In this document: positions 6,001-12,000 of the stretch, piece after piece
Position numbering within the stretch: position 1 is the stretch's first letter
Layout: each line of letters begins with the position of its first letter
Assembly: GCF_057098645.1 (NCBI RefSeq)
Contig: NZ_JBXSPU010000002.1
From: a plasmid
DNA length: 64,000 nt
Strand: one strand, 5' to 3'
Program-made: the position numbers

Positions 6001-9000
6001 CGGTATGATGGAACGGCTAATTAAACAAGCAATGAGTTGATTCCGTTTTTGAGTACTTCACTTTCAGGCAACCAGTACCCGGAATCACACACCCATGATT
6101 CGCCCGGGAAAATGAAACCTTCGCGGACCAGGAATACTCTAAAATTTGGCGGCAGTACATTTTCTATTTTTAGCATGTATCCTTCCTGAATGGATAGATT
6201 TTTCAGCTCAGATAGAAGATTCGGTGAGACGATGAGAGTCATTAACTGAGTTGAGTTTAAAATCGCAACTATAGATGCATCATTATAGTTTTCCTGTCGA
6301 ATACCATGACAACGTAGAGTCAGGGATGCAGATCTTCGAGGCGAAACCATCGGTAACTAAATCGAGTAAATTTGGATTTAGCCGATTACCCGGTGCTGGC
6401 CTAAACGGCTCATAGTGATACCCCGGGTACTGTAAACTGCTGAAAATGCCGTGGGGCGCTTCTGAGGCTTTGTCAGGGCCACAGAACATGTTTATCCACA
6501 TCCGGAGGCGGTAGTACTTAGCTTATTCATTCATAAATGATATATCTCTGAAGAGAATATTACGTTACCTGCGCAATTATTATTCTTCCCTCTGAACATT
6601 GCTGGCATAACCAGTCATCGATGCACCGGCGAACTCACTGAAGTGTTGGCATATAGCCCGGTTACGTAACTCCCGTGTCACGGTGGCCACGGTTTTACGG
6701 CGCACTGGAGAAAGTGAAGTGGCACACTGAATTTGGCCACCTGAACAGAGGTGATATGCTCACCTCAGAACAACATGAAGAGAATGTACTCTGTACCTAA
6801 TGCAAGAAACGAGAGGGAGATCAGAAATCCTAACGTATTGATTTATCAGTTAGTGGGAGTGACATATGAACTTATTTACCACAGTAGGTGATTTAACATA
6901 ATCCTCGTTATATGTACCAAGTCTGTAACAGCAAAGTTGTAATGTCCGCCTTGGGCTAAGTTAAGATGTCCGGCGTGTATAATCAAGTAAGGATTACCAT
7001 GACGGCTCTCGCAGCGGAGTTTTTCACTTTGGATGAAGTTAACCGACTCAAGATTATTCAGGACGTCATCGACCGGCGTCTGACAACACAGATGGCAGCG
7101 CAGCGGCTTGGTATCTCCGACCGCCAGTGCCGTCGTCTGCTTGCGCGTTATCGTGAAGATGGTCCGCTTGGCATGACCAGCCGCCGTCGTGGTAAATCCA
7201 GCAATAATCAGCTGCCTCAGGGACTGGCCGCATACGCGCTGAATATTATTCGCGAACGCTATAACGATTTCGGTCCGACTCTGGCCTGTGAAAAACTGGC
7301 TGAGGTTCACGGCGTTCATATTTCCAAAGAAACGGTTCGTAAGTTGATGACTCAGGCCAGTCTTTGGGTTCCACGTAAGCAACGTGCGCCAAAAATCCAG
7401 CAGCCGCGTTACCGACGTGCCTGTGCCGGTGAACTCATACAAATTGACGGCTGCGACCATCACTGGTTTGAAAACCGGGGACCCAAGTGTACAGCACTGG
7501 TTTACGTTGATGACGCCACCAGTCGTCTGATGCAGCTTCGTTTCGTAAAATCTGAATCGACTTTCACCTATTTTGAAGCGACACGGGGCTATATTGAAAT
7601 GCATGGTAAGCCACTGGCGCTCTATAGCGACAAAGCCAGTGTCTTCAGGATCAACAATAAAAATGCCACTGGCGGCGAAGGCGAAACGCAGTTTGGACGT
7701 GCGATGCACGAACTGAACATTCAAACCATCTGTGCAGAAACCAGCGCAGCAAAAGGTCGTGTTGAGCGGGCGCATCTAACCCTTCAGGACAGACTGGTCA
7801 AGGAACTCAGGCTTCAGGGCATCAGCACAATGGAATCTGCTAACGCATTTGCCGAAGAGTTCATGAACGATTACAACCGACGTTTTTCAAAAGCGCCTCG
7901 CCAGGAGTTCGATGTTCATCGGGAACTGGATGTCGATGATGATCTTGATATGGTGTTTACTTGGCGTGAAGCCCGCCGCGTGTCGAAATCACTCACTGTG
8001 CAGTACGACAAAGTGCTTTACCTCATTGAAGACAATGAGTTCAGTCGTCGGGCGATTGGTAAATACATTGATGTCTGGCATTACCCTGACGGACATAAAG
8101 AGCTCCGGCTTAATGGCGTATCACTTCCCTACTCCACCTATGACAAACTGTCTGAAATCGATCAGGGTGCCATTGTGGACAATAAACGTCTTGGCCGTGC
8201 GCTGGAGATGGCGCAACTTGTGCAGGCCGAACGGGATAATAACCGGTCACAATCAGTGCCATCCGGTGACGGCCCTTCACGCAGGCGCAAAGCCCCTACG
8301 ACGAAGAAATCCCAGCGTTCTTTGGACCAGGACGATATGTTCAATGCACTTGTAAAACTTCAGACACGAGCTGAGGAGATTTTTGGTGAACGCAACCAAA
8401 AATGATGTTTTGATACGAACATTTCAATGGTTAATAGATAGAGTGGAGATGGGCAGATGATAACGTTTTCTATGGATGAAAGTGGCTATACGGGTTATGA
8501 CTTACTCCACAAAGAGCAAAAATTCCAAGGCGCGTCATCAATATTAATAAATCATGATGACGCCAGTCGTCTGATAAAAGAATATTTCCCCAAACTTCAA
8601 GCCGATGAATTGAAGTACAGCTCGCTGAAAAGAAGAGATTCCAACCGCAAGCCATTATTTGAATTGCAAAAGCATCTCTTATCTAATTACCCATGTATAA
8701 CATGCGTAGGTGATAAACGCTTTTTACTAATTCTTATGTTCATCGATTATGCTGTTGAACCATTCTATTATGATTCTGGGATTAATCTTTATGAAGATGG
8801 CGGTAACTTCTCAATGGCATCAATGGTGTATTACGTTGGACCAGCGTATTATGGCTCTGCCTTTGATGATGTTCTGCTTCAGTTTCAAAATGCTATGAAA
8901 GAAAAAACATTAGATTCAGTGAGTTTGCTAATAAGCAAAATAAGGAGGCTTGATTGGCAAAGGTTAAAAGAGTTTTTTGGTCCTTTGGCATTTAACCACC

Positions 9001-12000
9001 CAGATTGCATTGATGCCATCATGACTGATGGAATTAGCACTGATGCCTCATTTACTATTTTAAATGCATTAATTTCTCGCACGGAAATGATGTCCTCTGG
9101 AGAGTATGCAATTGAGCATGATCGTTCTAAAAATCTGCTAACTTACAATGAACGCCTTAACTTTTTGATCAATTGTGATAAGGAAGGAGAGTTTAAACAT
9201 TCCGAGATAGCAACTATCTCATTCCCTCTAAACCTTAAAAAAGTCTATCAAATTGATTCGAAAGAAAGCCCAAGCGTGCAATTGTGTGATGTTCTTATAG
9301 GTGCATGTATTGAATCAGTTTATCAATTAATGGACTCTAAGGTGCTCAATCAAAATTCCGTTCTTTCACTTTACCAAGATAGCCAGTTAATACATTTCAT
9401 ACCTGATATAGATTTTGAAGGACAGAAAAAATTTAGGAAAGGCAGTCAAAGTGAGGAGTATCTTACGTTTATTCAAAATGAAATCTACTCTAGTAAACTT
9501 TAAAAAAAGGTTCTGAAAATCAGAACCTTATCGCACCACCAGACATAGAAATGATTCGTGAAGCTATTTTATACAGAACCAAAAACGCAAAGGCCAAAAC
9601 AGTCATGATATCTAATACCATAGGCATTACCTCCACTAACGTATTCAAAACAGCAGTTCAGATTGCAGAAGTGGATTGTTTTCGTTCATCAATATCTCCA
9701 AGAAAATAAATATGTACCTGATTATAGAAAATAAAAATCTCTCATTGTTTGATTAACTGTGTAGAAGATAAAATAAATACCCAAAAGCAATAGTGGATAA
9801 TGCTAACACCACACAATTAGCAATGTACCAGATCAATGTTTGGAACTTAAGCCGCCAGATCATTTCAGGCTCTTTACCGCTTGAAACTGAGCCTCTACCT
9901 TCACTGACTAACTTATCAGCATTTTTAAAATGCTGATAAGTTGAACCAGCACGAAAAGTAAGCCATGCCATACCTAACATTATGAATCCAAATAAATAAA
10001 ATGCTTTTTCTAAGTAAAAATCTACCGCTGATACAACATCCAGATTTTCCATTTGGTAATTCTCAATATTGTTGGTGAGTTAAAGATTTTTTTGTTGGCT
10101 AACTGTCTGAAAGCCCTAATTATGGTCATTACAATCCAACCAATTAACAGGTTCCCCAAGAAACCGTGTCAATGCTGCTTTAGCGTATTGTGGCTTAGTG
10201 TAATATCGAGGGAACCAGCCATCGTAATTTTGTGTTCCTTTGCGACGATATTCAGGCTCTACAGACAGTTTACATCCCTGGCCGTGAGGCGAGATGGTAA
10301 AGGTGACCCCAGTATTCGAATCAGTACTAAACAAGCTATTTTTCATTGACCCTTCTATGTCCCTCATGGCTACGCAGGGACACAGTACGTGATGTAAAAT
10401 CATAATGCTAGGTTATCAGGCCACAGAAAATAGTTTTCTCCTTTTTTATATCGATTTGGCTTGGCTTCTGCCCCTGCCGCTATGCCAGCATCAGTCAATA
10501 TGTATTTTCCTTCTACGTCCATGAGATATCCAGCTTCGATTAATTTTTTATATAGAGATAACAAATCAGTTTTATGATTTTTTGCTAGATTTGTCGAAGT
10601 GAGTTTTGAATTTGTATTTAAATCAGTAATCAATCCATTTTGATTTGTTAATGGTTCTTCATGAAAGGCTGAAGTGAAGTCGGATGACTCTTTATTAGTT
10701 TTTTCACTTTCTTTTGAACCTGTTGTTTCTTTATCTGTTGTTAGTGGCTGAATGTTATCTGTGCTGATTCTGATCAGTCGCTGAGCTTCATTTAACGATG
10801 AAGTGTATGCATCCTTCTCCTGCTCCTTAATAATTAACACTCCAATTTCATGGTTATTAATCTGACTAAAATCATAAAGGTTTAGACTGCACACAATACA
10901 TTGATTTTCATTGGCATATAATTTTGCATGGAGGTTTTTACAAAAACTAAGGCGTACAAAAGGCAGGTTTGTTAACCATTCATATTCTTTAGAGTTTAGT
11001 TCTGATTTCCCATAAACTATTCTGATGTCAACTTTTAGTCTATTTTTATCTTCGATCAGCTCTTTAATGCGATTACTAAGCTTAAGGTATGGGCTAATGA
11101 GAATTATCCTTTCCTCAGCTTCAGTGATTGTTTTTTCAAGTTGATAATTCAAACCAGTGGTGTTGAGTACTTGTACCATGTATACCTCATTTTAATTTTT
11201 AATGATGCCTTGAGAACGGCAAGATTTTTTATAACTATGCAACCTTGTTTTCAAAACCCAGCGTCCGAGGATTCTGAAGAACAAAGTCTCTGACGCCCGA
11301 TATGCATGCCTTGATGATTATATCAAAGTGCGGCTGCGCCTCCGATACCAAATTTCCTGTATTATCCAGTAGCAATATGACCCCTAGCGATTTTACAAGC
11401 TGGTACTCAACTGTCGACCGCTCTAAAGCGATCTGGAGCATGTAAATAGTTTCGCCGGATACATTCCCATCTATTCCAGTCACCGTTGCTGTGCAAGCAG
11501 CCTGCTGAGCTGGGGAATGAGGTGAATAATAGTCATACCAGTAATCGGCCATCACCGTTTCTTTCCTCGGTTGCAGGTTTTTTACGGGCCATTTCACCCA
11601 GACGGAAGACAAGTTTTCAGAAACAATTGAATACCGTAATGCCTTTAGAGGGTCATCAAATTCACCACGGGACCATGTCGCATCAAATTCTGACTGAAAG
11701 GTCAATGGGTCTATTACTGCAATAAAATCAAACTGGTCTTTATTAATTTTAGAGGCTCGCTCATTCATAAAGAAAAGGCCAAGCCTGAAACCTTTATCAC
11801 TTCTCCAGCTGGCACCGGCTGGCTGATAATCCGAATTGATAAATGGGCGGAGTTGCTGGTCTGTATGCAGAAAGATAAATGACGGTGCTAGGGTTTTATT
11901 CCCATTCTTGATTGGATTAACATAGAGACGTTCGCCTGCGCTGAGCATTTCAATAATTGCCTTTGAAATAACAACAGAAGCTGAAGGTATGCAGACGTTG

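Follow-up and report, generated by a model that had tools for sequence, protein, structure and literature searches.

A 64-kb stretch of the plasmid contig NZ_JBXSPU010000002.1 (RefSeq assembly GCF_057098645.1), referred to here as the window, contains a transposase gene followed closely by a gene for a DUF3800 protein. The question raised by this locus is whether the second gene is a passenger of the mobile element to which the first belongs, or an adjacent accessory gene; the initial annotation had allowed for both. We find that the DUF3800 gene is a passenger of a transporter insertion sequence (tIS), and that the window feature is a degraded copy of such an element from the IS1202 family. 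Transporter insertion sequences (ISs) of this family are a kind already known, and the member carrying DUF3800 is new.

The features of the locus, by position in the window, are as follows.

6891-6918 (+): dif-like Xer site (xrs), the insertion target, made up of ATTTAACATAA (XerD arm), TCCTCG and TTATATGTACC (XerC arm, degenerate)
6919-6923 (+): 5-bp spacer AAGTC that separates the element from the XerC arm; it represents the left-hand copy of the target duplication to be expected
6924-6948 (+): left inverted repeat (IRL), with a 5'-TGT start, the point on which all copies converge
6948-6973 (+): inner subterminal repeat, direct repeat D1, matching the consensus of the right inverted repeat (IRR) at 18/26 positions on the minus strand
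6999-8405 (or from the ATG at 6966) (+): transposase gene, IS1202 family, ISKpn21-like, with a match to NF033594, helix-turn-helix (HTH) domains and an RVE-x6-Q signature
8413-8440 (+): IRR-like relic ACGAACATTTCAATGGTTAATAGATA, 18/28 identical to the ISKpn21 IRR, not an active end
8457-9503 (+): passenger gene for a 348-aa DUF3800 protein with an RNase HII-like predicted fold
9507-9529 (no strand assigned): stem-loop just past the DUF3800 stop codon, followed by a T-run on the minus strand and a weak tail on the plus strand
9652/9653 (no strand assigned): probable point of truncation; beyond 9652 the homology to the intact element of 3,597 bp is lost

The transposase and DUF3800 genes

Both open reading frames (ORFs) are real genes, and they lie where the initial annotation had placed them. 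The first runs from 6966 to 8405 and encodes 479 aa, or 468 aa from the in-frame ATG at 6999 that RefSeq/PGAP takes as the start. The second, whose product has the N-terminus MITFSMDESGYTG, follows after a gap of 51-52 nt and is AT-rich, as had been noted, with a GC content of about 0.36 (0.35-0.37 over 8501-9500) compared to about 0.5 (0.47-0.54) over the transposase gene. Window positions 6500-10000 are 100% identical to E. coli plasmids of approximately 190 kb such as pSY3626_190k_tetX, where the two products are annotated as 'ISNCY family transposase' (WP_000125669.1) and 'DUF3800 domain-containing protein' (WP_000627692.1).

The earlier description of the first product as an ISNCY-like transposase is confirmed by its match to the NCBIfam model NF033594 (ISNCY_2), with 512 bits (cutoff 250) over model positions 1-367 of 368. 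The HTH domains identified by profile search are N-terminal. Members of the IS1202 family are recognised by a glutamine seven residues after the catalytic glutamate of the DDE domain (bioRxiv 10.1101/2022.12.17.520857), and the window protein carries this signature as RVERAHLTLQ, with E256 and Q263 in the 468-aa numbering. The two catalytic aspartates of the DDE domain were assigned by sequence pattern alone.

The left end and its target site

Transposase copies in unrelated plasmids all converge on TGTAACAGCAAAGTTGTAATGTCCG at 6924, whereas their upstream flanks differ. This is the left inverted repeat; the initial annotation could locate neither repeat, and the right one is indeed absent from the window. 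The xrs-targeting subgroup of the IS1202 family is described as having 5'-TGT...ACA-3' ends, a 5-bp duplication, and a left end lying 5 bp from the XerC arm (PMC10132070; bioRxiv 10.1101/2022.12.17.520857). We looked for these features as imperfect terminal inverted repeats (TIRs) of 24-26 bp with TGT...ACA tips, together with a target site duplication (TSD) of 5-6 bp. In the window the dif-like site, the spacer and the TGT at 6924 follow one another directly, which puts 5 bp between the XerC arm and the left end; no other dif-like site occurs in the 64 kb. The same XerD-spacer-XerC architecture, 5 bp from the IRL, is found at loci L002, L004, L006, L010 and L012; in every other copy examined, the sequence 5 bp from the IRL is either a dif-like site or the right end of another IS1202-family element, forming a tandem array.

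The IRL and IRR of intact copies agree at 18 of 30 positions, with TGT/ACA tips and the motif ATGTCCG common to both. The transposase probably binds the inner subterminal repeat as a second site, and the right end of intact copies has a counterpart in mirrored arrangement. No right-hand copy of AAGTC, and hence no target duplication, is present in the window, as expected because the copy is truncated.

The right end and intact copies in other plasmids

The right end was sought by using the left 5-bp spacer as a probe for its duplication in longer flanks. A copy in the IncHI2 plasmid pEC261_1 ends in ...CCGGACATCTGAACTTGGCCTTGACA followed by AAGTG, 3,572 bp from the TGT, and AAGTG is also its left spacer; a copy in pFJMB80007_1, which carries an ars operon, ends in ...CCGGACATCTCTACTTAGCTTTGACA followed by TAAGT, again identical to its own spacer, 7,188 bp from the TGT. 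The IRR consensus was then matched at 24 of 26 positions, downstream of a pentapeptide-repeat gene, in every locus with this gene context. The IRR is followed there by a perfect copy of the left spacer, namely TAACG (L010 and L032), AATTT (L011) and AAGGG (L012), and these sites represent independent insertions because their right flanks differ.

The intact element at L010 (NZ_CP136730.1, approximately 33480-37076) is 3,597 bp long and consists of the IRL, the transposase gene, the DUF3800 gene, the pentapeptide-repeat gene on the opposite strand, and a right end of about 53 bp. This right end contains two tandem repeats, putative binding sites for the transposase, and has the terminus ...TTGACA. 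The transposase encoded at L010 is identical to that of the window. At all three sites, the DUF3800 and pentapeptide-repeat genes lie between the transposase gene and the IRR and are enclosed by perfect TSDs. The DUF3800 gene is therefore a passenger gene of a tIS. Of the two possibilities that the initial annotation had raised, passenger holds and adjacent gene does not: in the intact copies the right end does not map upstream of the position equivalent to 8457 and is found beyond the DUF3800 gene.

In all 212 PLSDB plasmids that have it, the DUF3800 gene is at least 95% identical to the window copy, and in the copies inspected the gene either lies behind this transposase or has been truncated by later events. 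The 468-aa transposase was found 52 bp upstream of the exact DUF3800 protein in 10 of 10 distinct assembly contexts. At L014, the 3' end of the transposase gene, the DUF3800 gene, the junction and the pentapeptide-repeat gene are uniformly diverged by approximately 6%, and the arrangement is therefore old outside IncHI1.

State of the window copy

Positions 1-2729 of the L010 element match window 6924-9652 at 99.8%, and the element has no other match in the window. The window copy lacks the last 868 bp, which comprise the pentapeptide-repeat gene and the two-site right end with its IRR, and a scan of both strands of the window with the IRR consensus found no IRR-like sequence above chance. Synteny with the IncHI1B plasmid backbone resumes at 9712, and about 500 bp that separate the dif-like site from a 99-aa gene in related IncHI1B plasmids are absent. 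We consider it very probable that window 6924-9652 is a right-end-truncated copy of an ISKpn21-like tIS of about 3.6 kb, carrying DUF3800 as passenger and belonging to the xrs-targeting ISAba32/ISAjo2 subgroup of the IS1202 family.

Insertion of the element leaves 5 bp between its IRL and the XerC arm of a dif-like site, and those 5 bp are duplicated; in this IncHI1 plasmid it probably landed in this way at the conserved IncHI dif-like site. A later deletion or rearrangement may then have taken the pentapeptide-repeat gene, the IRR, the right-hand duplication and some of the adjacent backbone. Insertion followed by deletion in IncHI1 is the simplest reading, an order of events inferred from comparison with other plasmids. 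The window copy would presumably no longer be able to transpose as a unit, though its transposase gene is intact.

Some observations weigh against this account. The window's XerC arm is degenerate: 4 of its 11 positions are mismatches. Among IncHI1A plasmids, neither a copy with its right end intact nor an empty site was found, and synthetic empty-site queries built from the L010 context and from the IncHI1 context likewise recovered no empty site. Finally, the window target is not among the sites listed in PMC10132070 for ISSen13, which is an IS1202-family element of IncHI1 plasmids.

Further rearrangements of the region are seen at L006/L009 (pHCM1-type), L007 (p10907_1) and L013 (pEQ1). They take the form of a 687-bp deletion (window 9554-10240) in S. 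Typhi plasmids of the pHCM1 type, an mcr-1/PAP2 segment joined at window 8430 in place of DUF3800 in a monophasic Typhimurium plasmid, and a truncation of DUF3800 on its left at window 8870 in many IncHI1 plasmids.

The DUF3800 protein and its possible function

The initial annotation had called the second product DUF3800-like, and a profile search supports the call: it matches PF12686 with 24.4 bits against a gathering score of 21 (E 5.4e-5), the best stretch covering only profile positions 62-145. Many homologs at 50-55% identity carry a precomputed PF12686 match. Both hallmark motifs of DUF3800, as defined in PMC7736814, are present, namely the N-terminal DE motif (D7, E8) and the C-terminal QxxD motif (Q275, D278), and the predicted structure has the RNase H(2)-like fold of this family. 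Residues that are invariant among 70 homologs include D7, E8, E51, K53, E101, H221, D222, Q265, D267, Q275 and D278. The family is well conserved, its members being approximately 350 aa long and 50-64% identical across Enterobacterales, Burkholderia, Pseudomonas and Ralstonia.

The homologs are found singly, at positions in mobile elements that hold accessory genes. In Proteus the gene follows prophage tail-fibre genes; in Rahnella it adjoins a P2/186-type CI repressor; in P. aeruginosa it is at the boundary between the type IV secretion system and the cargo of an integrative and conjugative element; and in Burkholderia it adjoins HNH and AAA_23 genes near a Tn7-like element. On the basis of the fold, the conserved acidic residues and this genomic context, DUF3800 may be a metal-dependent RNase HII-like nuclease that acts alone, as cargo of a defence type or in competition between mobile genetic elements. 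We put forward a function as a defence nuclease tentatively; it is the most likely one, but as a possibility that falls short of an expectation.

Several results count against such a function. Comparison with the PADLOC-DB v2 models gave only a 32-residue local match, in the QxxD region, to the candidate PDC-M04A (E 1.8e-4, 19 bits). No DUF3800-associated RNA was found in Rfam, where the only match at E <= 1 was a spurious one to a microRNA. The protein has no Pfam RNase HII match at E <= 0.01, a search of PDB sequences gave nothing significant, and of the DEDD tetrad only the D-E pair was placed; the resemblance is therefore one of fold and not of membership in RNase HII. We found no experimental work in the literature that ties stand-alone DUF3800 proteins to defence. 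At the RNA level, the tail and leader of the gene are not conserved beside distant homologs, and fold z-scores around it reach only -1.6 to -2.0, values that are explained by the terminator hairpin.

An alternative is that DUF3800 and the pentapeptide-repeat protein form a two-gene system, in which case the window copy, having lost the partner, would be functionally crippled. Both genes are indeed cargo together in every intact element, and they have diverged together by approximately 6% at L014. However, a pentapeptide-repeat gene is missing from the neighbourhood of the homologs found at 50-64% identity in Rahnella, Proteus, Pseudomonas and Burkholderia, and DUF3800 has been kept intact and identical across IncHI1 plasmids, its exact sequence occurring in 4,509 indexed collection blocks. 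We regard a two-gene system as unlikely, and prefer a DUF3800 protein that would act alone.

Alternative boundaries of the element

Were the element a plain IS of 1.5 kb (6924-8440), DUF3800 would be an unrelated backbone gene lying next to it. Approximately 1.5 kb is a common size among IS1202-family members, the GC content drops sharply past the transposase gene, and the relic at 8413-8440 could be taken as an IRR given its 18/28 identity to that of ISKpn21. Homology among copies also seemed to stop near the transposase stop codon, the next gene being that for an S-4TM effector, arsH or DUF3800. Loci L002-L005 were first read as IS-only copies with DUF3800 outside the element, until longer flanks revealed cargo there too; a search for the IRR with the reverse-complemented IRL gave nothing above chance in the window or in L002-L005, because the flanks retrieved did not extend far enough and the window copy lacks an IRR. 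The relic itself agrees with the element's own IRL at only 14 of 30 positions and has the tip ATA rather than ACA, and the GAGTG that follows 8440 differs from the left spacer. We rejected 8413-8440 as the true IRR of a 1,517-bp IS because no plasmid copy has a homology break at 8440 and the real TSDs, perfect 5-bp duplications at three independent insertions, enclose DUF3800. Furthermore, in the PLSDB copies inspected and the 10 assembly contexts the DUF3800 gene was never seen apart from this transposase. A plain IS is thus largely refuted, and has very little probability left.

The segment 6924-9652 is found again, with another right flank, in F-type plasmids and others, and it might accordingly be a complete mobile unit of 2.7 kb whose right end, ...AAAACA at 9652, is a surrogate like those employed by ISEcp1. 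It terminates on ACA, has a GTAATG motif near its end, and at L010 is followed by AACG at both junctions. A 2,729-bp unit with a 4-bp AACG duplication was nevertheless rejected, since every copy outside IncHI1 continues for a further 868 bp to a canonical IRR with perfect TSDs; hence 9652 is a boundary in the IncHI1 lineage only. The AACG belongs to the real TAACG target and is coincidental at that position, the end at 9652 matches the IRL at only 7 of 30 positions, and the window holds no TSD. Nor did PLSDB or the 10 assembly contexts contain a second context that ends at 9652 with a 5-bp duplication. We therefore judge such a unit to be highly improbable.

Finally, a dif module mobilised by Xer recombination, of the sort that carries diverse cargo in Acinetobacter plasmids, can be practically dismissed as an explanation for the DUF3800 segment in place of IS cargo: the segment does adjoin a dif-like site, but this site is single in the window, with none near 9652 to make a pair, and the breakpoints coincide exactly with the tips of the IRL and IRR, where 5-bp duplications occur, and do not lie inside Xer spacers.

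Related elements and the IncHI dif-like site

The truncated tIS has relatives with other cargo. In pEC261_1 (L038 1058-4629, NZ_AP027422.1) the same scaffold of transposase, IRL and IRR, 3,572 bp long with the TSD AAGTG, surrounds a minimal CBASS (cyclic oligonucleotide-based antiphage signalling system) consisting of a SMODS cyclase and the S-4TM effector, which PADLOC identifies with 508 bits. In pFJMB80007_1 (L039 6953-14140, minus strand, NZ_AP025778.1) it surrounds arsHRBC together with USP and SulP genes, with a length of 7,188 bp and the TSD TAAGT; the IncHI2 ars region therefore lies inside a dif-targeting transporter IS. A more distant IS1202-family element of 3,927 bp, in an IncHI1B plasmid of K. 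michiganensis (L017 563-4489, NZ_CP029142.1), carries Thoeris and a tetratricopeptide-repeat (TPR) gene. Its Thoeris consists of a macro-type ThsA and a TIR ThsB (407 and 245 bits), and the element lies 5 bp from a dif-like site, with the TSD TATAA and an IRL and IRR that agree at 19 of 30 positions. The clean empty site of this element is found in an E. coli IncHI1B plasmid (L016 4469-4501, NZ_CP122665.1).

In IncHI1A, IncHI1B and IncHI2 plasmids alike, the dif-like site is located upstream of a common thermonuclease-Dcm-DUF1173 block. Comparison of window 9712-15000 with L016, L017, L038 and L039 shows this conserved block to consist of a 99-aa membrane-like ORF, a hypothetical protein of 307-325 aa, the thermonuclease, a Dcm-type methyltransferase and DUF1173. 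The content between the dif-like site and the block varies, and the locus therefore looks like an integration hotspot. These comparisons suggest that the conserved IncHI dif-like site may serve as a hotspot for IS-borne defence and resistance cargo; our search of the literature found no paper describing the locus in this way.

A wider interpretation is that the scaffold of transposase and ends works as a modular shuttle that swaps its cargo. It would bring stand-alone immune genes and resistance operons (DUF3800, minimal CBASS and ars, with Thoeris in the relative) to the conserved Xer/dif-like site in large conjugative plasmids of the IncHI and F types and so make this site a hotspot for defence and accessory genes, and DUF3800 would be a new single-gene RNase HII-like nuclease directed against phages or plasmids. 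Taken as a whole this is speculative, and we hold it to be less likely than not.

The analysis accounts for two neighbouring genes that have only generic annotations in thousands of IncHI1 plasmid assemblies, among them the pHCM1-type plasmids of Salmonella Typhi and plasmids with tet(X4)/mcr-1. In Pfam, the passenger genes published for the IS1202 family matched no protein of known function, and the present element provides a concrete case of a dif-site-targeting IS with cargo of recognisable fold. It also nominates a compact and widespread RNase HII-like protein as a candidate single-gene factor for defence or plasmid competition.

Other features of the window

Downstream of the element, a cluster of genes for nucleic-acid enzymes has the following order.

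10400-11179 (-): phospholipase D (PLD)-family protein
11235-12212 (-): 325-aa protein with no family match
12164-12784 (-): staphylococcal-nuclease homolog
12903-14330 (+): orphan-type C5 cytosine methyltransferase

The IncHI1B relatives lack the gene for the PLD-family protein, which shows weak DrmC-like matches and a C-terminal match to the PADLOC candidate PDC-S69. Within the minus-strand 99-aa ORF, positions 9910-9942 hold a perfect 16-nt inverted repeat, AACTTATCAGCATTTT/AAAATGCTGATAAGTT, that is 97% conserved in IncHI1B plasmids, the surrounding sequence being approximately 93% identical.

To the left of the element, a 61-bp sequence at 6715-6775 has matches in 4,091 of 5,426 complete E. 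coli genomes, K-12 included. It is mostly unannotated, and the annotated instances are found directly upstream of IS3-family transposase genes, which makes it a probable remnant of an IS3-family left end. The match of pHCM1-type plasmids to the window starts at this sequence, with the tcu operon on its left. Further away, a 1,111-aa ORF at 1062-4397 (+), a hypothetical protein in RefSeq, has no match in Pfam, NCBIfam or PADLOC. The scan for the IRL yielded as a by-product identical 28-mers at about 24588/28033, 36479/41187 and 37771/42479, with spacings of approximately 3.4 kb and 4.7 kb, which suggest large direct repeats elsewhere in the window.

Comparison with known systems

Compared with type 2 RNases H (RNase HII, HIII and H2A), the DUF3800 protein has a sequence identity of only 9-13%, with about 150 of its 348 residues aligning, and those enzymes have nothing that corresponds to its large helical insertion (residues ~87-212 in the model). 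It shares the Pfam family, the DE motif and the predicted RNase H2-like fold with the DUF3800 of type VII retrons and with the TPR-DUF3800 associated with Cas12a2. In contrast to these, it is encoded by a stand-alone 348-aa gene with no reverse transcriptase, non-coding RNA, Cas12 or TPR partner, and it keeps the QxxD motif, which is reported to be missing from the retron-linked group.

Among insertion sequences, ISSen13 resembles the present element in its IS1202 family, its targeting of dif-like sites and its occurrence in the IncHI1 plasmid group, having been reported in type 2 IncHI1 plasmids. By its listed description, however, ISSen13 is 1,542 bp long, with a 456-aa transposase, a 3-bp TSD and no passenger, and its listed spacers are GATGGA, GATTGA and GACACA, compared to CGAGGA here in that orientation.

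A close parallel is with tISKpn21, a member of the ISAba32/ISAjo2 subgroup of the IS1202 family that is 2,278 bp long, with a 467-aa transposase, a 5-bp TSD and one passenger ORF. The transposases are related, with approximately 69-70% nucleotide identity across the gene, and both elements have TGT...ACA ends with ATGTCCG, a 5-bp TSD, insertion 5 bp from the XerC arm, a passenger located between the transposase gene and the IRR, and tandem arrays at one site. They differ in that the TIRs are imperfect here (18/30) but match at 25/25 in tISKpn21, and in that the window copy has no right end. The cargo is also different, being DUF3800 and a pentapeptide-repeat gene in place of a single 211-aa hypothetical protein, and the scaffold described here is also seen with CBASS or ars cargo.

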